From a virus, in the IMG/VR virus record IMGVR_UViG_3300044970_000539, positions 41,136 to 105,135 of that record: DNA of 64,000 nucleotides. One strand, written 5' to 3'. The translations under genes were made by a program, and so were the position numbers. Each line of letters begins with the position of its first letter. Position 1 is the stretch's first letter. Shown here in pieces: positions 1,939 to 45,348 of the stretch. The notes below the pieces were generated by a model. It saw only the letters and a program-made list of their open reading frames with translations, made no database searches and was not told the origin of the DNA.

Positions 1939-2463
1939 ATGACTTGCATTGTCGCTCTGCGCCATGAAGAAAAAGTTTATATGGCAGGAGATCGTGGAGC
2001 ATCAGATGATGGAGTTATCCTTTCACTTGAATCGCCAAAGGTTTGGAAAGTTGGACCCTATCTAATTGGATATGCTGGCTCAATGGACGGGGATAGAATA
2101 AGACACAACTTCAGACCATCAGCACCTAACATTAAAGACACAGATAGGTTTATGCACACAAAGTTTATTAAAGAACTTCGTGAATTCTATAATGAGTTCT
2201 GGATTGACACATCTAAAGAAGGTGAACTTAGTTTAATTATTGGTATTCGTGGAGAAATCTATGAGCATAGTTCTGGAGATATGTCTTTATCTAAATACTC
2301 TTTGCCATATATGTCTATTGGTTCTGGAGCAGAGTACGCTTATGGGGTTTTGTATGCAACAGATAAACAAAAAAATGCAAGGAACAGAGTAATTCAAGCA
2401 GTATCAGCAGCAATTAAATTTAACCCATCATGCATGGGTCCAATTGACATCATAAGTGCCTAG
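1939..2463 (+). CDS. Ntn-hydrolase, HslV/proteasome beta-subunit-like peptidase
   Basis: N-terminal MTCIVA (Thr nucleophile), MAGD, IGYAGS, SIGSGAEYAYG. Confidence 0.85.
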   Translation: MTCIVALRHEEKVYMAGDRGASDDGVILSLESPKVWKVGPYLIGYAGSMDGDRIRHNFRPSAPNIKDTDRFMHTKFIKELREFYNEFWIDTSKEGELSLIIGIRGEIYEHSSGDMSLSKYSLPYMSIGSGAEYAYGVLYATDKQKNARNRVIQAVSAAIKFNPSCMGPIDIISA

Positions 2464-9210: not shown

Positions 9211-9627
9211 ATGCAGGCTATTTTGATTATCGGCTTGACATTGATCTCTTTTTCGTCTATAATTATAGTAATGAACAAAAAAAGAAAAAACTCTTTTAAT
9301 AAAATACTATATCGTCAAAGCGATATGCATAATATATTAAAGGATTTTTTCTTTAAAGATATTTTTGATGACAAGGTTGTTACATCTCAGTCTAAAATTT
9401 GGAAAGAGAAACAGACAACCAAGGTAGTCATAATAGATCAAAAGGCATATTGGGTATCAAATAACATGTTCTATGTTGGAGATACAGTAGATGGAAAGGT
9501 CAGACCAGAAACTGGAAGACCTTTAGATACAACCAAGATGTCAAAAAAAGAAGTAGATAAGATGTTATTCATCCTGGATAACTTAAAGAATGGGAAACTA
9601 AATGATAGTGGCAGTGCAGGGAACTAA
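9211..9627 (+). CDS. Hypothetical protein with N-terminal hydrophobic segment
   Basis: AGGAG RBS; ORF. Confidence 0.7.
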   Translation: MQAILIIGLTLISFSSIIIVMNKKRKNSFNKILYRQSDMHNILKDFFFKDIFDDKVVTSQSKIWKEKQTTKVVIIDQKAYWVSNNMFYVGDTVDGKVRPETGRPLDTTKMSKKEVDKMLFILDNLKNGKLNDSGSAGN

Positions 9628-10175: not shown

Positions 10176-10460
10176 ATGAAGCAACATTTATGGAAAGATC
10201 AAGCAGCGTGTCTTGGTCTTGATACTAATATCTTTTTTGATAAGTATGAAGACAATGTAGATGTGCGCCCAATTGTAGATTCAATGTGCCAAAGGTGTCC
10301 AGTATCAAAGGTTTGCTTTGCTAACGGTGTTTCTGGTAAAGAGTACGGTGTATGGGGTGGGGTGTTCCTTGAACTTGGAAATATATCTAGAGAGTTTAAT
10401 AAACACAAAACCAAACAAGACTGGGCTAATACTTGGCAAGCATTGACAATGGAGAAATAA
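10176..10460 (+). CDS. whiB: WhiB-family Fe-S transcription factor
   Basis: W..QAAC...FF...C.RCPV..VC...EYGVWGG. Confidence 0.92.
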   Translation: MKQHLWKDQAACLGLDTNIFFDKYEDNVDVRPIVDSMCQRCPVSKVCFANGVSGKEYGVWGGVFLELGNISREFNKHKTKQDWANTWQALTMEK

Positions 10461-20349: not shown

Positions 20350-20433
20350 ATATCAAGTATACAGTTCGGCGAAAAGTATGTCAAGTTCGGCGCAAAAATA
20401 GGAGTTAACAAACCTTCCCTTGAGTCTAACGAC

Positions 20434-21006
20434 TCACCCTTGGTTAGCAGGCTTCAACTTGCTCAAATAGTATTTATACTCTGAGACTAATCTAGATTTC
20501 TTACTGGAGTTACATTTCCTACAAAGAGGCTGAAGGTTTCCAATTGAATGGTTTCCCGACCTAGATATGGGAATAATATGATCCATCGTAATCTTTTCTG
20601 TTGCCCCGCAGAAGGCACAGGGAGAGTTATAGAGACGTTTATACTCTTTATCTAATATCTTATAACTCTTGGCATCTTTGGCTATCTTACGCTTGATATG
20701 GGAGTTGGCTACATGAAGGGTAAATCTTTCACGGTTTGCTTGATTCCAAGCCTTAGCAGTTGCTACACGCCTTGCACTATTTTCTTGACGATAGATAGCC
20801 TTCTTAGTCATATAAACTTGATCTTGCTTTTGTTTTACCCAACGCTCTTTATTTTTCTTTTGCCATTGCTTTTTATATTTCTCTGGATTAGCCTTTTGCC
20901 AAGCCTTAGAATACTCTTTGGCACATGGCTTACATTGTGACTGACCTTTATAAAAGTCTGTGACAAGGCAGGTCTTTTGACATTTTCTGCAAACCTTTGT
21001 ATCCAT
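20434..21006 (-). CDS. HNH endonuclease
   Basis: CAFC...MDHIIPISRSG.H...NLQPLCRKCNSSK. Confidence 0.92.
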   Translation of the reverse strand: MDTKVCRKCQKTCLVTDFYKGQSQCKPCAKEYSKAWQKANPEKYKKQWQKKNKERWVKQKQDQVYMTKKAIYRQENSARRVATAKAWNQANRERFTLHVANSHIKRKIAKDAKSYKILDKEYKRLYNSPCAFCGATEKITMDHIIPISRSGNHSIGNLQPLCRKCNSSKKSRLVSEYKYYLSKLKPANQG

Positions 21007-21232
21007 ATACCTATTCTACCAATTTTGCCAGGGTATGTCAAGAATGCTCTTTACACACAGGCATAGGAATATCTTCTACTGGTATAAACATATGTCTAGG
21101 TTTGCGACATATATAGCATAGGCTCCAGGGGACTATGTTCTTGAATTTAATGTCATTAAAGTACTTTTGCTGTAGAGACTTTCGTTCATCATTAGATAGT
21201 CCCATATGCTGATTATAGCCTATAATGTATGC

Positions 21233-21550
21233 ATGGAGCAAGCCATACTATACCTACTATACAGTCCAGAGCATAAGGCTATTAAGATAGGCATATCAGA
21301 TATCTCAGGTAAAAGGTTTGCAAGCCACAGGACCAAAGGTTGGATCTTGATTAAGTATTGGCATTTTTTTGAACGGTATAGGGCAAAAGAAGTAGAAACT
21401 ACAGTACTAAGAACACTAAGGGATAGATACGGACACTATCTAACTAAAGAACAAATGCCTCATGGGGGATATACGGAGACATTTGATGCAAATAAAGTAA
21501 CCAGGAGGATGTTGATCCGTATGGTTAATAAGGCGATTAAAGAGGTTTGA
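21233..21550 (+). CDS. GIY-YIG/T5orf172-like nuclease domain protein
   Basis: LYLLY...IKIGIS...RF..H...GYTETF. Confidence 0.7.
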   Translation: MEQAILYLLYSPEHKAIKIGISDISGKRFASHRTKGWILIKYWHFFERYRAKEVETTVLRTLRDRYGHYLTKEQMPHGGYTETFDANKVTRRMLIRMVNKAIKEV

Positions 21551-21689
21551 GACTATTGCTTTAATGGCATAACAGCATCACATATACAGATGATTGACTC
21601 TGGCAATGTATGGACTTTAGTATTGATTGCAATAGTTGTTGCACACTCTGGACACTTGTATGTATTCTTCATATACCCATCATATCATA

Positions 21690-22415
21690 GAGTTATCCAC
21701 AGGTTTTATGTTAGAAATGTCATAGTTATCCACAAGTTATCCACAATTAAATGTTACTGATATTTTTTAGATTTATCCCAAAGTGGAGGAAAGTGGAGGA
21801 TAGTGGTTTATGGAGCACTTTTATAGAGGGCGTTCGTAATGTCGCAGAGCGCCAAACCTCCTACCATAAAACCTTTACATTGTCAAACCTTCATATTTGG
21901 ATAGCGGATTATACTCCCAAACCTCTATATTGTCAAGTATATTTGATAACAATTTGATAACAAACCCCTATATAAAACCTCTCAAAATGTGAGAAAAATG
22001 TAGAAAAACCTCTATAAAAATATATAAAGGTTTGATAAATATTCTAAAATCCAGGGAAAAATATATGTCCTTCGTAATGTCTTTTATACTATAGGGTTTG
22101 GTATATCTTTTGATCCCCCGCTGCAGAATGTCTGATAATCCTGGGTTTCATTGCAGGGCGGGGGATAAATAAAGAGAGTTCGTAATACCCCTATAGTAAT
22201 AACAAACCATACATTCTGGTTTTTGGATATAGAGGTTTGAAAGATATGAGTTTATATGATATAAGGTTTGACAAACAAGGTTTGATATGCTAGAATCCTG
22301 GGAAATTTATAGGTCGTTCGTAATCTTTTTTATTGGGATATAAGGTTTGATCGAAAACCCTGCGAATTTTTTAGAAGGTTCGTAATAAGGTTTGGTGTGT
22401 AAAAGGTTTTTCGAA
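21690..22415. repeat. Non-coding repeat-rich region (origin-like or terminus-like)
   Basis: Three TTATCCACA, five TTCGTAAT, >12 AGGTTT/AAACCT, GC hairpin 22113-22166. Confidence 0.65.
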
Positions 22416-22419
22416 AATC

Positions 22420-22698
22420 TCAGTCTTCAGCAGCAGAGATTTCCAAAACCTCATCAAGGGTCATGCCTTCAATGATGTCATCTTCAGTAAGTTTAATAGA
22501 CTCAAGAAACATTTCAAATGTGTCAGCAATGTATCTGCGACCATCATCTGAAACCTCAACAACCAAACCCTGTGATGTTAGATATGCCAATGGCAATCCG
22601 AGATCGTTGTATTCTATAAAGGCTCTGAAGTCTTTCTCTTCTTTATAGTTTTCATACAACTCCCCCAGGATTACACACTGTGTTACAAAATCTGTCAC
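22420..22698 (-). CDS. Hypothetical acidic protein
   Basis: ORF; ATGA overlap with the upstream gene. Confidence 0.75.
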   Translation of the reverse strand: MTDFVTQCVILGELYENYKEEKDFRAFIEYNDLGLPLAYLTSQGLVVEVSDDGRRYIADTFEMFLESIKLTEDDIIEGMTLDEVLEISAAED

Positions 22699-22973
22699 TC
22701 TTTAACTTCCTGTGCCCTGAAAAAGTCTAGAGCCGTGTCATACATAACTTCTGGGTCAAGGTCACGCATCTCGCAAAGTTCTCTCCATGCATACTCTAAC
22801 TCAAACTCACCAAGAGATGTAAGTGTTACCCACTCTGCTGCGACATACTCTGCTAACTTTAGTTCATCTACAAGCCCTGCCCAAAAATCAATTGGTAGGT
22901 AAGACACCTCTACAAGGCTTTCAGCCTCAATACTAATGTAAGCCAAAATGTCTGCTATCTTGTTATAATCCAT
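22695..22973 (-). CDS. Hypothetical acidic protein
   Basis: ORF in operon. Confidence 0.7.
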   Translation of the reverse strand: MDYNKIADILAYISIEAESLVEVSYLPIDFWAGLVDELKLAEYVAAEWVTLTSLGEFELEYAWRELCEMRDLDPEVMYDTALDFFRAQEVKE

Positions 22974-23190
22974 GTCTCCACCGTTCCATTTGTAGTTTAG
23001 GGTCTAGAATACCTTCTTTTTCATACTCTGCACTTTCAATTATAGCAATTAAACGAGTGTATGTCAAGTGTGGCAATACCCTAGCAAGCATTATGCCTGT
23101 CTGTTCAAGGTCTAGATTTAAGTCCTCAATAATAGGTTTAATTCGCATAGCCACACGCTCTTCTGGCGTGATACCTCTACTAATTCTCAA
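22963..23190 (-). CDS. Hypothetical protein
   Basis: TTG start after GAAGGGG. Confidence 0.65.
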   Translation of the reverse strand: MRISRGITPEERVAMRIKPIIEDLNLDLEQTGIMLARVLPHLTYTRLIAIIESAEYEKEGILDPKLQMERWRHGL

Positions 23191-23802: not shown

Positions 23803-24165
23803 TCATAGGTCTATTCCTTCGCAGTCGTGGGTTTCTTCTTCAAGTGTATCACCGCAGAAATCACATGTCAAGTCTGGTTCTCCTACCATGATTTGAATAA
23901 TAGTATTATCAGGCACAGGCTTCTCACTAAGGAAATAGCCAATGCGATTAACAAATCCCCAGCCGCTCCAGATATAGGTACCGCCATCGTCTCCGTCGCC
24001 ATACATCCAGATGCGGTTTTGTGGCTGGGACTTAATAAACTCTACCTCATCACCATAGGTCTCATACATCAAACCATCAAAGGAGGCATCTATGTCATAT
24101 GAGTTAAGTATAAACTTAAACTGCTCATCTGCTTCTTCAAAGGTCATTTCAATAAGTTTATCCAT
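23803..24165 (-). CDS. Hypothetical protein
   Basis: MYETYG.E...SGW.FVNRIGY motif; C-terminal CxxC. Confidence 0.75.
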   Translation of the reverse strand: MDKLIEMTFEEADEQFKFILNSYDIDASFDGLMYETYGDEVEFIKSQPQNRIWMYGDGDDGGTYIWSGWGFVNRIGYFLSEKPVPDNTIIQIMVGEPDLTCDFCGDTLEEETHDCEGIDL

Positions 24166-24403
24166 TGGCCTTGGTCCTATCTGCTATAGCAAATGCTAGT
24201 TGGTATGTTAGTTGGTATACATTAGCATATGCGTCAAGTACACCTTCTAAGTAATCTCTTGCAGGTCCGTCCTCAATACCAGAAAGACGTGTCTGTGTGT
24301 CATACATAAGGTTTTTAAGTTCACCGTGTAGGATATCAGTTCCTGACTCTCCCATATCAATTAGTTTCTGTAGGTTTGGTGCTAGTTTGTCTCCATTTGT
24401 CAT
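24158..24403 (-). CDS. Hypothetical protein (leaderless)
   Basis: ATG follows TATACT after 6 nt. Confidence 0.75.
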   Translation of the reverse strand: MTNGDKLAPNLQKLIDMGESGTDILHGELKNLMYDTQTRLSGIEDGPARDYLEGVLDAYANVYQLTYQLAFAIADRTKANG

Positions 24404-24573
24404 TTATTAAGTATATCCTCTGCTACTGACAAAAGGTGGCGGGTAGCCTCAATTGCTCCAACATTATAATGCCAGTCAATTGAATCCTCTCCTAACGATG
24501 ACTGTTCAATTAGTTCCTTGTCTTGTTCAAGACTGATTAAATGAATCTTCATATACTCAATAAACTGGGTCAT
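24400..24573 (-). CDS. Hypothetical protein (57 aa)
   Basis: AAGGA RBS; overlaps both neighbours. Confidence 0.6.
   Translation of the reverse strand: MTQFIEYMKIHLISLEQDKELIEQSSLGEDSIDWHYNVGAIEATRHLLSVAEDILNK
24410..24432 (-). promoter_or_regulatory. TGTCAG-N10-TANNNT promoter (PafBC/RecA-NDp-like)
   Basis: TTGTCAG TAGCAGAGGA TATACT. Confidence 0.75.
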
Positions 24574-24743
24574 TATCTATCCTTTCGTAAAGAGGTTTCT
24601 CGCAGGGCAGGGTCAAAGATTTCGCAGTAGCAGACATGGCATAGCATGAAGTTATCAGCCTCATCAACATTAAGTTTATTCTTGCATACTGTGCAGTCGT
24701 ATTCAGTAAAGGTGGCAAATCGGGTGTAAATTACATTGGTCAT
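24573..24743 (-). CDS. Zinc-finger microprotein (56 aa)
   Basis: CTVC...CHVC; leaderless after TATAAT. Confidence 0.6.
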   Translation of the reverse strand: MTNVIYTRFATFTEYDCTVCKNKLNVDEADNFMLCHVCYCEIFDPALRETSLRKDR

Positions 24744-24747
24744 AATA

Positions 24748-24963
24748 CTAATTATACGGGTTGGTGTTGATTTTCACAAGCCCACGGGGTGTGACCTTGC
24801 TCACATCTGTAATGATAGGGGCATTTCCATCTTCTTCTGATATTAGGACAACTATTCCATACCCTCCACAAATACAGGCAGGATCAAGAACCTTATCAGC
24901 ACAAGCAGTGATTTGAATCAGCGCATCACAATCAGTACATAGATAATCATACTTAGTCCACAT
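24748..24963 (-). CDS. Zinc-ribbon microprotein
   Basis: YDYLCTDC...CIC; GGAG RBS. Confidence 0.65.
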   Translation of the reverse strand: MWTKYDYLCTDCDALIQITACADKVLDPACICGGYGIVVLISEEDGNAPIITDVSKVTPRGLVKINTNPYN

Positions 24964-25495
24964 TGATTACTCCCCAGCACTTATCGCAGGTAAAGCCATT
25001 AGGTAGGGAAACATCATCAACTCTATCTCCTTCTACCCCATCCCAGCAGGGTACACAAATAACACAATCATCTAAGTAAACACCAATAGTATTCATTAGT
25101 CAAAATACCCTTCTGCCCATAAGCCCTGGAGAAACTGTTGTGCCATTAAGATACCCTCTTTATCATCAGGGTCAGTTATATACTTATATGAATTGTGTAC
25201 AGCATTGCTCATCTTATCTAAATCATCAATGGTATAACCTAACATTATTCTCCCCAATATTCTACTATAAGGTTTAATGCACTACAGATACGGCAATCAC
25301 AAGGGTCTCCCCCCATGTTTTCCATAAATTCAATGTGAGAGAAATTATCCTCACAGATTTGTTCAACAAGGTCTTTTACTGTGTAAGGTTTGAATGTGGT
25401 AGTCATATATTAATTATAGCCGAAATCCTAGAAAAATACAAATCCTTACGTAATCGTAAAGTGTGTTTAATATCACATTGTCGAAAAATTTCTTG

Positions 25496-25569
25496 CGATC
25501 CGTACGGGACTTGAACCCGTGACCTCCACCGTGACAGGGTGGCGAACTAACCAACTATTCTAACGGACC
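25496..25569 (-). tRNA. tRNA-Asp(GTC)
   Basis: GGTCCGT/ACGGATC; CCACC-CTGTCAC-GGTGG; GGTTCAAGTCC. Confidence 0.92.
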
Positions 25570-25573
25570 GTGT

Positions 25574-25601
25574 GAGCAGTTTTAATTCTTACTCAGGAAT
25601 T
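25574..25601 (-). ncRNA. H-type pseudoknot element, copy 2
   Basis: AATTC-CTGAGTAA-GAATT-AAAAC-TGCTC. Confidence 0.7.
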
Positions 25602-25608
25602 TTTTTAA

Positions 25609-26625
25609 TTATGCAATTTGCAAAGTGCTTTGCACAATCTTTAGCAAACGATTTTTTTCTGCATTAATAGCAGGGTCAAAACCACTTGCAGATGCAAGGA
25701 TAGATTCGTTAGAACCACCACGAGCAGAACGGTACCAATCAAGGCGTTCAGTTAGTGCATTGAAAGCACCCCAAGCATTACCAGCAATCATGCCGTTAAA
25801 CTCGCCTGTGTAGATGTCATTGATAACATCAACCTTGTTTTCCCACTTCTTGAAAGCACCCTTAGAATCTTTTTCTGGCTTAGGGTATGCAGCAAGAATG
25901 ATGTCGTTAAATTGCTTAGCAGAAACTTCCTTCTCAATCATAGCCTTAGCCATGAGGTCAAAAGAATCCATGTACTTGTGAGCCATGCCAAGAGTCTCAC
26001 GAGCAACGGCAACCTTACCAGAAGCGGTCTGAGTGTGGCGAATCTTGAAAGATTGCTTGACACCATTCTTTTTCTTAGTAGTGTTTAGTGCAAGATTAAG
26101 AGTGTTAGCGCACACAACACGAACAGGTGTAATGCTTGCTTGAATAGCGATTGAGCCGTCATGTGATGTGTTGATAAGTAAATAAGTCTTTACCTTATCT
26201 GCAACACCGTTAGGGTCTAGGACAGTTTCACGCTCTAGTGCTAATGCACCGAATACGACACGACCACCCTTGATTGAGCCAGCCGTTTCCCAACGACCTC
26301 CACCGTCAAGAATGTTGTCACCGAATGAGAATAAATCTTCATTCTGCATAACATGATAACGCTCACCAACGACACCAAGAATGTCGGTCTGTGAGTTATC
26401 AGTAGGGTTAGTACGCAAAACATACTGGTATGCCTTGTCGCTTGTTAAGTGTGATGGGGTTTCCAAATCTTCCAGACGAACATTCCAATTATTTAGATTG
26501 GCAGCAGCAAGCATTTCGCTTGTTGTTTTTTCTTCTGTAAATACGGTACCCAATCCATGCCAAGCAGGTTCACGAAATGATGCAAAACTTGCTACGCCAT
26601 TTTGTGATTCTAGTTCATGTGCCAT
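25609..26625 (-). CDS. DUF932 / phage-plasmid protein (TIGR03299-like)
   Basis: MAHELE...PAWHGLG, ETAGSIKGG, SHDGS, TPVRVVCANTL, IRHT; AGGAG RBS. Confidence 0.9.
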   Translation of the reverse strand: MAHELESQNGVASFASFREPAWHGLGTVFTEEKTTSEMLAAANLNNWNVRLEDLETPSHLTSDKAYQYVLRTNPTDNSQTDILGVVGERYHVMQNEDLFSFGDNILDGGGRWETAGSIKGGRVVFGALALERETVLDPNGVADKVKTYLLINTSHDGSIAIQASITPVRVVCANTLNLALNTTKKKNGVKQSFKIRHTQTASGKVAVARETLGMAHKYMDSFDLMAKAMIEKEVSAKQFNDIILAAYPKPEKDSKGAFKKWENKVDVINDIYTGEFNGMIAGNAWGAFNALTERLDWYRSARGGSNESILASASGFDPAINAEKNRLLKIVQSTLQIA

Positions 26626-26656
26626 GAGTTTTCTCCTTTTTGTTGTTGTTAATTTA

Positions 26657-26679
26657 AGTATACACGGACGGTCTGACAA
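26657..26679 (-). promoter_or_regulatory. TGTCAG-N10-TANNNT promoter
   Basis: TTGCAT-TTGTCAG ACCGTCCGTG TATACT. Confidence 0.75.
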
Positions 26680-26801
26680 ATGCAAATCGGGATAGTTAAA
26701 CATAGGGCAATTCGGACATTTTTCTTGTGATCTTAAACACATGCTCGTAACTTGACATTGACTGGTCAGCCGTGTCGAAAAATTTTTCAAGGGATTGAGC
26801 G

Positions 26802-26829
26802 GAGCAGTTTTAAAACATGCTCAGGTTTT
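26802..26829 (-). ncRNA. H-type pseudoknot element, copy 3
   Basis: AAAAC-CTGAGCAT-GTTTT-AAAAC-TGCTC. Confidence 0.7.
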
Positions 26830-26844
26830 GTTAGTAGCCCCCTA

Positions 26845-27261
26845 CTAAATATCTACTCTGTCAACACTGGATGACAAATAAGTTACCTCTTCACCATATG
26901 AAACAGAATCAAAATCAATTTCATGAATTGCATTAATTGCTTCTTCTTCATTACGTGCATTGACTGTAATTGAATACTGAACTGAAACTTCCAATTCAAA
27001 TTCTTTTGCTAATTCAAAACCACAGATGTCTGCAATTTCTTGTGCAGTGCTCTCATCAATGGTACCGTTTTCCATTGTTTCCAAGGTCCACTCTTGCATT
27101 TCATTACGCATACGGGAGCGCTCTGCAGCCTCGCCGTATGAGCGCTGAGTTACTTCTTGAATGTGCTTTTCTAATTGCTCAATGCGTGTTTTGTTTTGTA
27201 CTAGTTGTGACTCAAGAAACTCTCGTGTCATGTAGTGATTGTCTATTACTGGTTGGTCCAT
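26845..27261 (-). CDS. Hypothetical coiled-coil protein
   Basis: ORF with own promoter and RBS. Confidence 0.8.
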   Translation of the reverse strand: MDQPVIDNHYMTREFLESQLVQNKTRIEQLEKHIQEVTQRSYGEAAERSRMRNEMQEWTLETMENGTIDESTAQEIADICGFELAKEFELEVSVQYSITVNARNEEEAINAIHEIDFDSVSYGEEVTYLSSSVDRVDI

Positions 27262-27293
27262 GGGGGCCCTCTTTCTGTTAGTTGTTTAATTTA

Positions 27294-27323
27294 ATTATAC
27301 TGGGCACCACTGACAAATGTCAA
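27294..27323 (-). promoter_or_regulatory. TGTCAG-N10-TANNNT promoter with a perfect -35
   Basis: TTGACA-TT-TGTCAG TGGTGCCCAG TATAAT. Confidence 0.85.
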
Positions 27324-27337
27324 GATCCCCTTACGGG

Positions 27338-27364
27338 GAGTAGTTTATACACATACTCAGGTGT
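27338..27364 (-). ncRNA. H-type pseudoknot element, copy 4
   Basis: ACAC-CTGAGTAT-GTGT-ATAAAC-TACTC. Confidence 0.65.
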
Positions 27365-27419
27365 CTCATCTCAGGCATACCTACGCATCATGGCATAGGG
27401 CTTAGCAGAGATAAATTAT

Positions 27420-27845
27420 TTAGAGATAACGAGCAATAGCGTTGTATGTAGAAGTATTAACTACTTCCTCATCTGTCATCTTGAGAATACGAATAGCGTT
27501 CTCAATTTCCTGCTTTTGCTCTAGGTATGAGTGACGACCCATTTGCTCAAACTCACGCTCAGGCTCTACTGGCAGACCTTCTTTAGATACTGTCAGGTCA
27601 AAGTCAATGTTGAGTTGGTTGTTCCATGAGCGATAGTTAGTGCGGAAGTTTTCTGCCTTCTTGATGTTTGCTACTGCATACTCAACAAGTTCCTTCTGCC
27701 ACTTCTCATAAGCCTTCTTATACTTTGCTTCGTTTGCTTCTTGTGAGGTGTAAGACTTTTCTAGTTCTGCTAAACGAGTTTCTAGTGCCTTAATTACCTT
27801 TGGTGTTGCGATTTTTACTGAGATTGATTTTCCGTTTCTTGCCAT
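27420..27845 (-). CDS. Hypothetical protein
   Basis: 141-aa ORF. Confidence 0.8.
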   Translation of the reverse strand: MARNGKSISVKIATPKVIKALETRLAELEKSYTSQEANEAKYKKAYEKWQKELVEYAVANIKKAENFRTNYRSWNNQLNIDFDLTVSKEGLPVEPEREFEQMGRHSYLEQKQEIENAIRILKMTDEEVVNTSTYNAIARYL

Positions 27846-27891
27846 GTGTTTTCTCTTTTCTTTGGTGGTTTAATTGTTAGGGGGTTGTGTT

Positions 27892-27919
27892 GAGCAGTTT
27901 GTATTCATGCTCAGGAATA
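27892..27919 (-). ncRNA. H-type pseudoknot element, copy 5
   Basis: TATTC-CTGAGCAT-GAATA-CAAAC-TGCTC. Confidence 0.7.
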
Positions 27920-27929
27920 AGCAATTAGA

Positions 27930-28094
27930 TTACTTAGCCGTCCAAGTTGTGTATCGGTGTGAGCCATTGACATCTAACTTTACACGAACATTACCATTTG
28001 GTTGTGGGTTAATCTCTACGATTGTTCCTGTTACCTTTGACTTCTGTGTTGTGTATGTGTCGCCTACCTTGTAGGTTGCTGTTGCTACTGACAT
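27930..28094 (-). CDS. Small SH3/KOW-like beta protein
   Basis: YKVGDTY...GTIVEI...VRVKL; AGGAG RBS. Confidence 0.7.
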   Translation of the reverse strand: MSVATATYKVGDTYTTQKSKVTGTIVEINPQPNGNVRVKLDVNGSHRYTTWTAK

Positions 28095-28135
28095 TGTGTT
28101 TCTCCTTTTGTTTAGTGTGTTTTGCTTATGTATTA

Positions 28136-28157
28136 AGTGTAACATTTCCTACTGACA
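28136..28157 (-). promoter_or_regulatory. TGTCAG-N10-TANNNT promoter
   Basis: TGTCAG TAGGAAATGT TACACT. Confidence 0.7.
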
Positions 28158-28309
28158 TTATCAACATTTTTCTGAGATTTCTCACTATTTGAGACGCTCA
28201 GGGGGTGTGAGTTGAGTCACATTAGACAGATTGAGGGCTATTGTCCACCTGCCACGATTAGCATGATTAGTAGCCCTATTCCTGTTGCTATTACTATTTC
28301 CATTTTTCC

Positions 28310-29032
28310 TCATTTCTTTGTTGCTGAGAATACTATGTCACTCTTTGAGTATACACAAAGTGAGCAAGAAACGCAAGCCGAACCCTTAGTGCTAATTAGT
28401 GGTATCTGCTTATTATTCTCAGGACACTTAGCGCCAGGTTTATTTGTTAGGGCTTTCATGTCTGCTTGTCCAATTAGAAAGTTTTTAGCAAGGTATGCTA
28501 ATTTAACTCCATGATCTGTTTTTAATTCCACACCTGTATCTTTATTCTCGCTATCTGTGGAATAGTATAGTGAGAGATTATCAATACCCTTCAACATTAG
28601 GGCGGCACTTTTAACTCTAGTGTAAACCCAGAATTGAATATCAGGATTATTAAGGATGACATGCTTCCATGCGAATGTATAAGTATCGTTAAAGAAGTCT
28701 CCGTCCCAATGGATACGGAATAGCATAGGGGCTTCACGCTTTACACAATCAGCCTTGAAGTCTTTTATCATATCTTCAAGCAATGCTTCAATAGTATCGT
28801 GATCAGCGTCTTTAACTAATTCCCAATTGTGCAATAGGTTTTTCTTTACTGTTGGGAATACTTTTTCCAATTTGCCAGCATAACAAACACTCTCGCATAC
28901 GCTAGTCGCTCCAGGGCATGAATAAGCCTTTCCTGCGGGTAATCCGAAAGTGTTGGCGATACTTGCTTGTTTTCCATTTGGTGTAACTGCATTTGCTACT
29001 TTCCTATCTTTGCTTCTTAGTAGTTTAGTCAT
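28310..29032 (-). CDS. GP88-family (radical-SAM-like, Cys-cluster) protein
   Basis: FGLPA...CPGA...C...CYA, FRIHWDGDF, FWVYTR, C-terminal CxxCxxC. Confidence 0.8.
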   Translation of the reverse strand: MTKLLRSKDRKVANAVTPNGKQASIANTFGLPAGKAYSCPGATSVCESVCYAGKLEKVFPTVKKNLLHNWELVKDADHDTIEALLEDMIKDFKADCVKREAPMLFRIHWDGDFFNDTYTFAWKHVILNNPDIQFWVYTRVKSAALMLKGIDNLSLYYSTDSENKDTGVELKTDHGVKLAYLAKNFLIGQADMKALTNKPGAKCPENNKQIPLISTKGSACVSCSLCVYSKSDIVFSATKK

Positions 29033-29037
29033 GGTGG

Positions 29038-29178
29038 CTACTCTCTTTCTTTCTTTAATTCTAACATAAGGGACTGACATTTTTTTCTATCGTATTTTTT
29101 CTTATTGGGTACGGCAGAGGCAGCGTTAGACCTACGTAATTCCATAAGCCTACGTAATTCCTCTTTGCTTTTCTTCAT
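29038..29178 (-). CDS. Small basic protein (46 aa)
   Basis: ELRRSNAA...NKKKYDRKK; leaderless after TTGACA-17-TAAGAT. Confidence 0.6.
   Translation of the reverse strand: MKKSKEELRRLMELRRSNAASAVPNKKKYDRKKCQSLMLELKKERE
29058..29079 (-). promoter_or_regulatory. TGTCAG-N10-TANNNT promoter
   Basis: TGTCAG TCCCTTATGT TAGAAT. Confidence 0.7.
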
Positions 29179-29286
29179 ACTTAATCTTAGCAGAATCGTG
29201 GAAAAATGTCAAATCTTACGTAAACACGACACGCCCGACTGCGTTCGAAAATTTTGTGCGGGGAAGCACACAAAATCTTTTTTTAA

Positions 29287-29529
29287 TTATTCGTCAGCGT
29301 CTACGTAAACGTAAAGAGAAACTGATTCATCATACTTAAATTGCACAATGTCTTTGTCACCAAAATCGGTTTTATAAGCAACCGCATAGACATCGCCTGT
29401 TTCATCGGATGCAATTCCAAGTACTTCAACAACCTCACCATCAACCATGATTAGATCTTCAATCATTAGTTGATCTGGTGTTAGGCTATCTGCAAATTTT
29501 AATTCCATATTAGATATTGTAACAGTCAT
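29287..29529 (-). CDS. Hypothetical protein
   Basis: ORF. Confidence 0.65.
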   Translation of the reverse strand: MTVTISNMELKFADSLTPDQLMIEDLIMVDGEVVEVLGIASDETGDVYAVAYKTDFGDKDIVQFKYDESVSLYVYVDADE

Positions 29530-29592
29530 TTTAACGAGCCCCCGCAATCATTAGTAGGAATAAAAAGCAGCCTGCAACAAATAAGAATTCTA

Positions 29593-29913
29593 TCACTCAA
29601 GCCCCAATCCTAACTCATAGCCTGCATCCTCTTCGCCATAGTATTCATCTTGTGGCAACCAAAAATCCAAGTGGTGTTGTTCAATGATAGCCCACGCTGG
29701 TGCATGACTCATGCCTTTATAGAATACGCCTTCTGGCATAGCAATAAATCGCATAGCGTCATTCTCATAGTATGCATCAATAGCATCAATGCAAGGTTGC
29801 ACCATGCTTAGCGGTACTGGTGGATAGTGATTACCTTGCAAGTGATAACCAATAGCCTGTTCAAGTGGTAGATCTAAGTTTGTTGCTAGGTCAATTCCTG
29901 TCATGCTTCCCAT
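29593..29913 (-). CDS. Hypothetical protein (HLQGNHYPPVP family)
   Basis: ORF; TAATG overlap. Confidence 0.75.
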   Translation of the reverse strand: MGSMTGIDLATNLDLPLEQAIGYHLQGNHYPPVPLSMVQPCIDAIDAYYENDAMRFIAMPEGVFYKGMSHAPAWAIIEQHHLDFWLPQDEYYGEEDAGYELGLGLE

Positions 29914-30134
29914 TATCGTGTTGTTACCTTTCCCATGCGGTCAATAATTTTTGTGTGCATTTTGCCTGACGGCTCTGATAAATTAATTGTTGAGTACTCA
30001 TTAGCAAACCCGACATCAACAAAGCGTTGGTATGCTTCCACGGCAGTTAAAGCATCTGAGTAACGACCAACCCAATTAGGCTTAGTGCCTGAGTCATAGG
30101 TTACTGTTATTGAGTATAGGTATTCATTATTCAT
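29913..30134 (-). CDS. Hypothetical protein
   Basis: ORF in operon. Confidence 0.7.
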   Translation of the reverse strand: MNNEYLYSITVTYDSGTKPNWVGRYSDALTAVEAYQRFVDVGFANEYSTINLSEPSGKMHTKIIDRMGKVTTR

Positions 30135-30313
30135 TATGCATTCTCCAATGTGTATTCGTTTAATTCATTACTAGCGTACCATTCGCAATACTCATTTTCA
30201 AGTGTCATGCCTTTAACGCACTCACAAAACTCTGAGTCAAACTCCTCATGACCATTACCAAAAAAGAGGACACCCTCATCATAGCAATCATAGCAATCCC
30301 AATTATTCATTTA

Positions 30314-30523
30314 TTAGTCTCCAATCTTTACTGCAAGTATGCGGTATGTATCTTTTAAGTTAAGTGGTGCTGAGTAGTGGGGGCGTACCTGAACACGATA
30401 AGACTCGCAATCTTGATACCATACATCAGACTTTTCTGCTGAGATAATTTCTCCCGTAAGTGTGCGGGACTTATAAGTTTTTCCTACAAGTAGGTTTTCT
30501 ATTGTATAGACATTTGCTGACAT
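30314..30523 (-). CDS. Hypothetical protein
   Basis: GAGG RBS downstream of promoter. Confidence 0.7.
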   Translation of the reverse strand: MSANVYTIENLLVGKTYKSRTLTGEIISAEKSDVWYQDCESYRVQVRPHYSAPLNLKDTYRILAVKIGD

Positions 30524-30555
30524 TTGCCAACCTCTTTCTTTTTGTTGATAATTCT

Positions 30556-30577
30556 ATCCTACCATAGGGGTCTGACA
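30556..30577 (-). promoter_or_regulatory. TGTCAG-N10-TANNNT promoter
   Basis: TGTCAG ACCCCTATGG TAGGAT. Confidence 0.7.
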
Positions 30578-30781
30578 TTTTCTGTTAGACACGCCCAAAG
30601 GTAATAGACTTTCTTTTATTTATTTTTTCTTACTATGTAAGTCTAGCCTATTAGACAAAAAATCTCAAGTTACTTATGAGTAATCTTAAATAGTGAGACG
30701 CTCAAGCCATGTGACAAATCTCACAAATCTAGCCTGTGGATAACTCTGTGGAAGACACGCCCGAACGGGTCGAAAAAATTT

Positions 30782-30809
30782 AAGCAGTTTGAAATCATGC
30801 TTAGGATTT
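30782..30809 (-). ncRNA. H-type pseudoknot element, copy 6
   Basis: AAATC-CTAAGCAT-GATTT-CAAAC-TGCTT. Confidence 0.7.
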
Positions 30810-30814
30810 TGATT

Positions 30815-30967
30815 TTACTTTTTAAGTCGCTCAGTTCGCAACGCAACCTGCAATCTGCGAATTTCTTTATGTTGCTCAACGTTTTGTTTCCAAAACGCAA
30901 TCATCATTCCAACAGATCCAGCAAGTGCAATTACAATTGCGATAAGTGTTCCAGTGTCTAGAATCAT
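30815..30967 (-). CDS. Single-TM microprotein (50 aa)
   Basis: MILDTGTLIAIVIALAGSVGMMIAFWKQ... Confidence 0.65.
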   Translation of the reverse strand: MILDTGTLIAIVIALAGSVGMMIAFWKQNVEQHKEIRRLQVALRTERLKK

Positions 30968-31149
30968 GCTTTCACCTCAACACCATCAACGCAAGCATCA
31001 TAGAATTTATTTTCATCAAATCTAGGATTATCAGAAGCAAACCATTCGCTAAATTCAAAAACTAATTGGTCAAAATCATTTGAGTCAATGTCATCAACGA
31101 ATTTGTTTAGAATTTTTGCAGTTTCTACATAGTCTTTACGAGTCATCAT
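30964..31149 (-). CDS. Hypothetical protein (MTRKDY...DNPRFD family)
   Basis: ORF in operon. Confidence 0.75.
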   Translation of the reverse strand: MMTRKDYVETAKILNKFVDDIDSNDFDQLVFEFSEWFASDNPRFDENKFYDACVDGVEVKA

Positions 31150-31355
31150 TATTCGGCCACCTTTAGAATTGCATAAGAGCCACCTTCATTGATGTGGTCC
31201 AAGATTGGTTGAAGTTTAGAACCGACTAGGTCCTTGAGCATTGACTCAAGCATTGCAATTTGCATTTCTTTTTCTAGTGCAAGAAGTTGCATTCCTACTG
31301 GATGAGTCTCGTCTACCTCTGTGACGAACTTTAGATTGTGTTCAATTTTTACCAT
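31149..31355 (-). CDS. Hypothetical protein
   Basis: AGGA RBS. Confidence 0.65.
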   Translation of the reverse strand: MVKIEHNLKFVTEVDETHPVGMQLLALEKEMQIAMLESMLKDLVGSKLQPILDHINEGGSYAILKVAE

Positions 31356-31374
31356 GTTTAGTTTTCCTATTCTT

Positions 31375-31572
31375 TTAGTTTGAGTTAGTAAGTGTACGAG
31401 TGCCACGAAGTACGCCACGAACGCCAAGGGCATCACATGACATTTTTACGGATACGCCAACAGGTAATTGTGTTGGGTAAGTTGATACGAATTGAGCAAC
31501 CGCACCACGAGAGGCAAGGTTGATTTTTTTAGTTGAACCTGAAAAGGTTTCTAGTGTAACAGTGTAAGTCAT
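31375..31572 (-). CDS. Hypothetical protein
   Basis: AAGGAAG RBS after promoter. Confidence 0.7.
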   Translation of the reverse strand: MTYTVTLETFSGSTKKINLASRGAVAQFVSTYPTQLPVGVSVKMSCDALGVRGVLRGTRTLTNSN

Positions 31573-31604
31573 TGAGTGACTTCCTTTCTTTAAGTGATAA
31601 GACT

Positions 31605-31627
31605 ATCCTATCATGGGGCACTGACAA
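31605..31627 (-). promoter_or_regulatory. TGTCAG-N10-TANNNT promoter
   Basis: TTGTCAG TGCCCCATGA TAGGAT. Confidence 0.75.
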
Positions 31628-32428
31628 ATTGGGGCACTTATTCGCTAGGCTCACTGTGATACTGGTCACATTTATTTGCTAGGCTCATTGCCTTGTCTGT
31701 CCTTATTTAATTGTTATACTAGAAGTATAGCAAGGAAATGTCAAAAAGTCAAGTCCTGCATGGGCGTGTCGTGTGTGATTTACACCACACCTACCCTGTG
31801 GATAAGCCTGTGGATAACTTTTGTCGAAAATTTTTCAGGGGATCAATCCTGAAAAACTTTTCTATTAACTATGAATTGCAATAACAAAAGCAAAACAAGT
31901 AATTGCGATTAGAATAACTAACATTAGTTTTCCTCAATTTCATTTAGTAGTTCCCATAGCACGGGTTCTAGTGCAAGGGCTGCTTCATCTAACTTTTCTT
32001 GTAAGGTTTTCATTTACTTACCTTCATTCTTTCTAATTATTGCAATGCATTCTCTAATTGCAGTAACGCCATTCTGGTCGCCACGATACTCAATGATTAG
32101 GTTTTCTAATTCACGAATTGTTTTTTCCATTTATGCAATCTCCAATTCGTTATAGTCAATAACCTGAAAGTCATGTCTTTCTAGTGGCATAGCCTTTAGC
32201 CATGATAGTGCAGACTCAAAGTCCTCAGCCTCAATAGTAACCATTAGGTCAAAGTTAAATAGTGTCATTACTTTACCTCCTTGTATAAAAAGTCCCAAGC
32301 CTTACGGCATAACACAATTGATTTGCAATTGTCACAACAGATAACCCCATGAGGGTTAAGGTCTAGGTCATAGACATCTACGCTGGCAGATGTCGCCCCA
32401 CATACTGAGGGGAGATTAACAAAGGTAC

Positions 32429-32629
32429 TCATCTTGTAAGTCCTTCCTTTCCATAAGTGTTAATAAAATCAGGGAGAGCCATTACGCCCTTGTAGTCTTT
32501 ACATCTAGGGCAAAATCTATTCCACCCGTCAAATAGTGTTATGCAAAAAGCGCAAATGTTATCCATAGCGCATAAGCCTTGCTCATCTATAAATTGCATA
32601 GTGTCTAAGAATTGATTAGTCTGGTTCAT
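32429..32629 (-). CDS. Zinc-finger microprotein
   Basis: CAFC...CPRC. Confidence 0.65.
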   Translation of the reverse strand: MNQTNQFLDTMQFIDEQGLCAMDNICAFCITLFDGWNRFCPRCKDYKGVMALPDFINTYGKEGLTR

Positions 32630-32854
32630 TTAGTCACATACCAATCTGTCCACATAGGGAATTGCTCAGGGTCACTATCATAGTAGTAACGCTCAATGTT
32701 TTGTTCACAATCTACGCAGAAAGTGAATTGGTTATCCCCTACCTCGGAGATAGCGGAATACTGAGGATTATGCTCAGTGCATTTTGTTAGTGTAGTCATT
32801 TTGACCTACCTTTCGTTAAGGGATTTCTTTACCCTTGTTTTTCTTTATACTGTA

Positions 32855-32877
32855 AGTGTAGCATGGGGGTCTGACAA
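32855..32877 (-). promoter_or_regulatory. TGTCAG-N10-TANNNT promoter (leftward of a divergent pair)
   Basis: TTGTCAG ACCCCCATGC TACACT. Confidence 0.75.
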
Positions 32878-33094
32878 ATTGCAAACCCAAAATGGTATCA
32901 AAACGGACATTGTGAGGCGTATCACATGAGACATAGGTCACATTTGAATGGTCAAAGATAAAAATGACCATTTTCTACGGCGTGTCGCCTTGACAAAATC
33001 GGGTCGAAAAAAAGTTATCCACAACCCCTGTGTATAAACTATGTGACGGGTATCACAAAAATACTTTCCCGACACGCCCGAAAAACAGGCTAAT

Positions 33095-33117
33095 TTGTCA
33101 GTGGTAGGTGCTAGAAT
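33095..33117 (+). promoter_or_regulatory. TGTCAG-N10-TANNNT promoter (rightward of a divergent pair)
   Basis: TTGTCAG TGGTAGGTGC TAGAAT. Confidence 0.8.
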
Positions 33118-33753: not shown

Positions 33754-34083
33754 ATGATTCTTACAGAAAAAGCAAAACAAAAAGTTTCGGAACTCATAGG
33801 AGACTCTCGCATATCTATCCCAGATAGAGAGATCTTCCTAAGAATCTCTGTTCAGCCTGGTGGATGTTCTGGACTTAGATATCAAACCTTCTTTGACTAT
33901 GAAAAGTTAGACGGAGATACGGATTATAACTTTGAAGACTTTACATTAAAGTTAGATAGAATGTCTGTTCCTTATTTACAAGGGGCTACGCTTGATTTCG
34001 TTGACACAATTGAAAAACAAGGTTTTGTACTTGACAATCCCAATGCTCAAGGATCTTGTGCATGCGGAGACAGTTTTAACTAA
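33754..34083 (+). CDS. iscA: Fe-S cluster assembly A-type carrier (IscA/HesB/ErpA)
   Basis: LRISVQPGGCSGLRY, LDF..., NPNAQGSCACGDSF. Confidence 0.93.
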   Translation: MILTEKAKQKVSELIGDSRISIPDREIFLRISVQPGGCSGLRYQTFFDYEKLDGDTDYNFEDFTLKLDRMSVPYLQGATLDFVDTIEKQGFVLDNPNAQGSCACGDSFN

Positions 34084-45060: not shown

Positions 45061-45348
45061 GTGTCAGAAAATAATAATAATCTTACACCAAACAAGTTAG
45101 CAGTTATTACAGATAACGTTGTAATGGATGTTTTACATACAGATGAAAGATTGGCTGCAATATTGTTAAGTCAGCCCACAGTCCTAGAGTTAACAGAAGA
45201 ATATGAAGAAGTAAATTCAAGAATTGGAAATGTTTATGATGAATCTACTCAAAAATTTATGCCACCATCTCCAGGGCCATCACATGTTTGGAATGAAGAC
45301 ATTAAAGGTTGGGTTATCCGAGAAATTTTTGATACTCTTGAGCCTTAA
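45061..45348 (+). CDS. Small partner protein
   Basis: DVLHTDERLAAILLSQP. Confidence 0.75.
   Translation: MSENNNNLTPNKLAVITDNVVMDVLHTDERLAAILLSQPTVLELTEEYEEVNSRIGNVYDESTQKFMPPSPGPSHVWNEDIKGWVIREIFDTLEP

Follow-up and report, generated by a model that had tools for sequence, protein, structure and literature searches.

Why should nine promoters crowded into one block of a phage genome carry the same hexamer at the same distance from their -10 box? The question is raised by IMG/VR virus record IMGVR_UViG_3300044970_000539, a phage record of 105,135 bp with a guanine-plus-cytosine (GC) content of 36.9%, in which we analysed a window of 64,000 nucleotides (nt), bases 41136-105135 of the record; all positions below are those of the window. 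A first-pass annotation had listed nine sites of the form TGTCAG-N10-TANNNT, had likened them to the actinobacterial promoters that depend on the activator PafBC (RecA-NDp promoters), and had proposed that the phage wires its early genes to the host sensor of DNA damage and single-stranded DNA (ssDNA) or to its own mimic of that sensor. The likeness of the promoters and an actinobacterial host speak for this wiring, and the mimic branch found no support. We put at roughly 0.6 the probability that PafBC-type sigma adaptation supplied by the host drives the block at 24.4-33.1 kb, a reading built on sequence comparison.

Counts, conservation and genes of the TGTCAG element

TGTCAG-N10-TANNNT occurs 11 times in the window against 0.96 expected (standard deviation 1.05), and none of 100 shuffled windows reached 11 matches. 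The enriched signal is the bipartite element, since TGTCAG alone is not enriched (28 observed, 34 expected). Spacings of 8, 9, 10, 11 and 12 nt gave 0, 2, 11, 1 and 0 matches in the whole 105-kb genome, with enrichment at 10 nt only, and all promoter-like matches to the pattern lie within one 9-kb block. Nine of the 11 matches stand in promoter context at the head of genes or operons between 24.4 and 33.1 kb, eight of them leftward and one rightward, and a scan of the window allowing one mismatch brought up no convincing further promoter-like site. The nine sites of the first-pass annotation all exist, and each heads a gene or operon; only the rightward one had to be moved by a base, its TGTCAG starting at 33096 and position 33095 being the preceding T.

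The two remaining matches are of another kind. The one at 30501..30522 (minus strand) shares bases with the start codon of a 69-amino-acid (aa) open reading frame (ORF; ATG TCA GCA AAT GTC...), is kept in relatives as coding sequence and is probably no promoter. The other, at 45062..45083 (plus strand), lies inside the ORF at 45061-45348, at its 5' end, and is a chance match without promoter context. The hexamer recurs at two start codons of the block, at 28091 and 30523 (minus strand), where the genes open with ATG TCA G; at the latter a TAnnnT follows 10 nt on, also kept in relatives.

The DUF932 gene of the block recovers 406 related IMG/VR stretches, of which we kept the 80 that are each at least 90% identical in the DUF932 protein. 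A search of related phages had been proposed as a check, and the array is indeed present in these 80 loci, with 600 co-oriented matches to the pattern against 49 opposite ones. The family logo reads A-W-W-TGTCAG-W-S-S-c-n-n-a-T-G-n-TAnAAT (W, A or T; S, C or G), followed by an A-rich stretch, and has a conserved A 6 nt past the -10 box. With this A as the presumed start site, the box lies at -28 to -23. For an unbiased count we took every TGnTAnnnT on the gene strand of the same loci and recorded which hexamer stands 10 nt before it. TGTCAG was found in 229 unique contexts and the runner-up in 19, with single-mismatch variants at 0-3 each and variants at the G, T or C position at 0-2. Judged from these counts, the hexamer is under strong selection of an all-or-none kind. 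A pattern-free alignment of 59 distinct orthologous DUF932 upstream regions keeps TTTGCA-TT-TGTCAG and leaves the spacer variable. Ten near-complete relatives carry 2-15 matches each, at least eight in nine of the ten, mostly in one block and on one strand, and the reversed pattern used as a control gives 0-1.

These data bear on the simplest alternative, that the hexamer has no reader and that its copies reflect chance or the common descent of duplicated promoter cassettes. In its favour, the operons that these promoters head are short, follow one another as a repetitive array and have other motifs in common. The flanks and spacers of the nine copies nevertheless differ around an invariant hexamer, the relatives hold it in 229 unique contexts with almost no single-mismatch variants, and the shuffled windows do not reach the count. 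This explanation is already disfavoured, and we regard it as very improbable.

The nine promoters, here called class II (TGTCAG box, 10 nt, -10 box TAnnnT, start site inferred from the family logo), head a range of genes. The promoter at 24410..24431 (minus strand), with TATACT as its -10 box, heads an 81-aa ORF (24158-24403) whose ATG coincides with the predicted start site 6 nt past the -10 (24403-24431). Its transcript is probably leaderless, because the ATG falls on that predicted start; leaderless messages are common in actinobacteria. The promoter at 26657..26678 (minus), which has an extended -10 (TGT TATACT) and a -35-like TTTGCA at 18 nt, heads the gene of the DUF932 protein (25609..26625, minus; Pfam PF06067, 162.6 bits; phrog_1221). 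The hybrid promoter at 27294..27315 (minus) joins a perfect TTGACA at 18 nt to the box and heads a 138-aa ORF, and that at 28136..28157 (minus), with a -35-like TTGATA at 17 nt, is followed by a small ORF and, after it, by one of 141 aa. Neither the promoter at 29058..29079 (minus) nor that at 30556..30577 (minus) has a -35; the former heads a GP88 homologue (28310..29032, minus; Pfam PF17338, 173.5 bits) and the latter five small ORFs (30523 down to 29287). Another promoter without a -35, at 31605..31626 (minus), heads four small ORFs. The last two form a divergent pair: the leftward half at 32855..32876 (minus) heads five small ORFs, and the rightward half at 33096..33117 (plus) heads small ORFs and the gene of an IscA-like iron-sulfur (Fe-S) assembly protein (33754-34083, plus; PF01521). 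Three of the copies, at 27294, 31605 and 33096, contain TTGTCAGTG, as had been reported, and the Pfam matches bear out the naming of DUF932 and GP88 among the block genes. The namesake of the GP88 family is gene 88 of mycobacteriophage L5, which lies in the L5 leftward arm near the right end. The gene content of the block, with its many tiny ORFs and GP88, suggests that it is expressed early.

A normal -35 had been claimed for several of these promoters. The claim stands for TTGACA at 27294, the one perfect copy, and for TTGATA at 28136, and is weaker for 26657 and 32855, where the match is 4 of 6; the other five have none. The family shows the same mixture: of 422 unique promoters, 57% match TTGACA at no more than 3 of 6 positions and 18% match it at 5 or more, at a distance of 18-19 nt. 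The extended -10 is more frequent, with G in 72% of family promoters and the preceding T in 66%. Extended -10 promoters can work without a -35, and on this ground the nine could be plain sigma-A promoters without any activator, the box being either a spacer that tunes promoter strength or an array of PafBC decoys that blocks host DNA-damage and defence genes. The 8-15 high-quality boxes per genome, multiplied by replication, would suit a decoy. A decoy, however, has no need of a fixed 10 nt from the -10, of co-orientation with the genes or of a place at the head of every operon, and the five of nine promoters without any -35 are the context in which a box would substitute for one. We consider plain extended -10 promoters with a decoy or tuning box improbable.

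Likeness to PafBC-dependent and host recA promoters

The in vivo PafBC motif of Mycobacterium smegmatis is tGTCgg(N10)tA(N3)T, 22 nt long, with its 5' part at -23 to -28 and no -35 consensus; its GTC triplet is conserved across actinobacteria and read by R46 and R50 of PafB, and PafBC inserts between region 4 of sigma-A and the -26 element (PMC8635444). PafBC levels are unchanged under DNA stress (PMC6789036) and ssDNA activates the protein (PMC11804915), so that it would be available at the moment of infection.

The phage element has TGTCRG at -28 to -23, with A at the R position, an exact 10-nt spacing and an invariant GTC. The likeness noted in the first pass thus holds exactly for the hexamer, for the spacing and for the distance from the -10, and it extends to flanks that had not been used there: both kinds of promoter have W-W-W before the box and W-S-S-C after it. 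Unlike the known PafBC promoters, the phage elements are found in a lytic phage, in nine copies here and 8-15 in most near-complete relatives, and they head small ORFs without known function instead of repair genes. None of their six box bases varies, position 5 being A throughout. An extended -10 (TGn) is present in most, and a -35 in about a fifth.

The promoters of host recA genes offered a second comparison, one that had also been suggested as a check. We scanned metagenome contigs for the box TGTCAG-N10-TAnnnT placed 201-261 nt upstream of the RecA Walker-A codons, an arrangement for which we estimate a chance expectation below one. At least 120 contigs match, and all 80 that were read encode RecA. 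Most matching contigs have 53-74% GC; two are lower, L169 at 36% and L122 at 40%. These two encode RecA of the actinobacterial type behind near-identical promoters (ACAAA-TGTCAG-TGC), and they are not tied to this phage. L169 has the gene order of actinobacteria, pgsA, cinA and an HTH_3 gene and then DUF3046 directly upstream of recA. Before pgsA it carries ftsK, an HTH_25/RodZ_C gene and a MiaB-type radical-SAM gene, and between the HTH_3 gene and DUF3046 lie two genes in divergent orientation, for a CrtO-like acyltransferase and a family-2 glycosyltransferase. From the recA promoters of L169 and L122 it follows that low-GC actinobacteria use exactly the TGTCAG box at recA.

We then compared the positions outside the search pattern in 72 recA promoters and 383 phage promoters, each set against its own base composition (53-74% GC in the host set, 37% in the phage set). 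At -3, -2 and -1 from the box, W is found in 68, 72 and 80% of the recA promoters and in 94, 95 and 99% of those of the phage. At +6, W stands at 91% in recA and 78% in the phage, where G never occurs. S follows at +7 and +8 in 95 and 88% of recA promoters and in 90 and 88% of phage promoters, and C at +9 in 64 and 51%. In each set the frequencies shift away from the base composition of that set and toward the other set, and this agreement of the flanks argues for the same kind of reader.

Among the high-GC recA contigs, one group (L102, L114, L118, L129, L135, L138, L145, L156, L158, L163, L166 and L177), whose RecA has VFGPEGSGKTT, shows a strongly conserved GGGTGTAAnTTA immediately in front of TGTCAGAC, so that the box has a longer form specific to this lineage.

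The genes of the phage point to the same group of bacteria. Besides GP88 and DUF932, it encodes a WhiB-like protein (10176..10460, plus strand; PF02467, 45.9 bits against a cut-off of 23.6 bits), and whiB is regarded as an actinophage marker in the literature (PMC10202952, PMC10914622). Its gene lies outside the 24.4-33.1 kb block; no TGTCAG box precedes it, and a canonical promoter stands about 0.9 kb upstream at 9235. The genome also carries genes for a ribonucleotide reductase (RNR), a portal protein and a capsid protease. The proteases of Streptomyces BE-cluster phages share 41% identity with the last of these, those of Rhodococcus phages coming next, and the phage is distantly related to the BE cluster. 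A megablast of the gene block against cultured phages gave no match, a tail-fibre query matched collagen repeats only, and the WhiB search recovered only proteins of the phage family. WhiB, GP88, DUF932 and the kinship with Streptomyces and Rhodococcus phages are our grounds for taking the host as an actinobacterium, which, on these sequence grounds, it almost certainly is, as the first-pass annotation had assumed. It is probably a low-GC actinobacterium, and the TGTCAG box at the recA of low-GC actinobacteria fits an actinobacterial host as well.

A different candidate host came up in a scan of genome contigs with the phage WhiB. The sole match, 68% identical, was a 4-kb contig (CAYZIG010000046.1) in a 0.7-Mb metagenome-assembled genome binned as Saccharibacteria. 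Of 61 genomes of that phylum, 2 have WhiB, with WYL in neither genome checked. WhiB being otherwise rare there, we rejected Saccharibacteria as host and read the 4-kb contig as a probable phage fragment placed in the wrong bin. A further Saccharibacteria genome (G011) gave two strong WhiB matches of its own (95.7 and 53.4 bits), a sign of contamination or perhaps of an unusual gene transfer.

In the mechanism that we favour, the nine elements would be PafBC-dependent promoters in which TGTCAG, as the -26 element placed exactly 10 nt before a sigma-A -10, replaces the -35. The resident PafB/PafC heterodimer of the host would sit between sigma-A region 4 and this element (sigma adaptation) and, once bound to ssDNA, would recruit the housekeeping polymerase. 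About 30-35 small genes, DUF932 and GP88 among them, would in this way be placed under an activator that the host already has. The ssDNA trigger could come from infection itself, from replication or from breakdown of host DNA. The extended -10 of most promoters and the -35 of a minority should allow some basal firing independent of PafBC, and the rest of the genome uses ordinary -35/-10 promoters.

Search for a phage-encoded reader and points against PafBC

No match to WYL (PF13280), HTH_11 (PF08279), HTH_PafC (PF19187) or sigma-70 region 2 was found in the 105-kb phage genome, and none to WYL in the ten near-complete relatives, so the suggestion that the phage might bring its own mimic of the host sensor was not borne out. 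Pfam and PHROGs scans of 21 different proteins from the leftward arm (12.5-33 kb) and the plus-strand operon at 33.1-34.1 kb returned only DUF932, GP88, IscA-like, HNH and glycosyltransferase families and two PHROGs without known function, phrog_1392 (the GP88 protein itself) and phrog_31860, with no regulator family among them. Ten further proteins at 34-41 kb gave a collagen-repeat match only.

A reader without a known family could still be encoded by the phage or delivered with the virion. Such a protein would read AWWTGTCAGWSS either as an activator that replaces the -35 contact, comparable to MotA/AsiA at the middle promoters of T4, or as a repressor that sits in the promoter spacer and shuts the block off, and the likeness to the PafBC box would then be convergence or deliberate copying of the host code. 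Candidates are at hand in the block ORFs that match no family, and the separate, perfect canonical promoters described below could express the factor first. The six-base invariance is tighter than the mycobacterial PafBC logo, and a site between -35 and -10 is the classic operator position. Set against this are the negative domain searches just given, the improbability of matching by chance both the host hexamer and the exact 10-nt spacing, and the agreement of the flanks with host recA promoters, which is not expected of an unrelated reader. On balance we think a phage-encoded or virion-delivered reader unlikely.

Several observations nevertheless weigh against host PafBC as the driver of the block. 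Samisti12, the nearest cultured relative, whose host has PafBC, holds 3 copies of the motif against 2 expected and is not enriched, and mycobacteriophage L5 has none; the array is therefore a trait of this lineage and not general to actinophages. The presence of pafBC in the host is deduced from recA boxes in low-GC actinobacterial contigs that are not tied to the phage. About 30 ORFs of the block have no known family, and a phage-encoded reader may possibly be among them. All six bases of the box are invariant in the phage, against loose conservation of positions 1, 5 and 6 in M. smegmatis. Some promoters of the family, about 18% (2 to 4 among the nine here), have a good -35, and most have an extended -10; these copies, unlike model PafBC promoters, may fire without an activator. 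Finally, a lytic programme that relies on an activator in need of a DNA-damage signal would be odd.

A second promoter class, neighbouring motifs and known systems

Other genes of the window have promoters of a canonical kind, here called class I: perfect or near-perfect TTGACA-17-TATAAT/TATACT/TAGAAT without a TGTCAG box. Five lie in the range 20356..23067, at 20356, 21013, 21908 and 23039 (minus strand) and at 22268 (plus strand), and further copies are found at 1116, 1879, 2444, 9235, 11588, 16993 and 46031. From this separate canonical class without the box it follows that the phage separates a box-bearing block from genes with plain sigma-A promoters, which would imply two tiers of transcription. 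Among the other features of the phage are an HslV-like peptidase (1939-2463, plus strand), seven tRNAs and a 127-bp direct terminal repeat at the record ends, which may be a sign of circular assembly only and not of true genome ends; in BE-cluster phages such a block lies in a long terminal repeat.

The block holds two further motifs. Palindromes of the form TGTGA-N6-TCACA, the CRP/GlxR-type consensus, occur between 24790 and 33057 in six perfect and four one-mismatch copies, with 3.5 expected for the whole window, and several are centred about 64 to 87 nt upstream of predicted TGTCAG-promoter start sites; they form a second set of look-alikes of host-regulator sites. The motif GACACGCCC occurs in five exact copies near TGTCAG promoters, at 29228, 30588, 30754 and 33071 (plus strand) and at 31762 (minus strand), all within 29.2-33.1 kb; with one mismatch allowed it has 9 matches in the whole window against 2.7 expected.

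The middle promoters of phage T4, which have been compared with PafBC sigma adaptation (PMC8635444), have the same architecture: a box at a fixed distance (the MotA box at -30, with a sigma-70 -10) replaces the -35, and an adaptor stands between sigma region 4 and the DNA. T4, however, brings its own adaptors, AsiA and MotA, and remodels sigma, whereas here no phage adaptor was found and the box matches the host's own element. Samisti12 and the BE cluster (Stanwilliamsviridae) resemble this phage in gene content and general layout: one arm holds many small ORFs with a promoter apiece, another holds RNR, portal, protease and capsid, and HNH genes, tRNAs and glycosyltransferases are present as well; the small-gene promoters of Samisti12, in contrast, are of TTGnnn/TAGACT types without the TGTCRG box, and the gene order of its leftward arm differs. 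DriD of Caulobacter is a WYL-family activator of a non-SOS damage response that is switched on by ssDNA (PMC9186387). It resembles PafBC in protein family and ssDNA trigger, but it acts as a homodimer, where PafBC is a heterodimer, its DNA site is a different one and its host is a proteobacterium. In the literature searched we found no paper linking PafBC boxes to phage promoters and none stating whether the Nanopelagicales have pafBC.

A broader picture may be sketched, which we hold tentatively and at somewhat less than even odds. Lytic phages of low-GC actinobacteria, an abundant lineage, would use PafBC as an obligate start-up factor; the ssDNA of infection would trip PafBC, sigma adaptation would turn on the block, and the phased CRP-type boxes would add the energy state of the host as a second input.

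The only known sites of PafBC-type sigma adaptation are DNA-repair genes of the host. On the broader picture just given, no virus before would be known to exploit a DNA-damage sensor of the WYL type, and sigma adaptation would be seen for the first time outside host stress genes. The promoters would also provide a ready set of natural PafBC-type promoters, predicted to be strong. The relation between phages and WYL regulators, which in many cases guard defence islands, would be concerned as well. If widespread lake phages wire a gene block to PafBC, the DNA-damage sensor of actinobacteria would also be an infection sensor that phages exploit.

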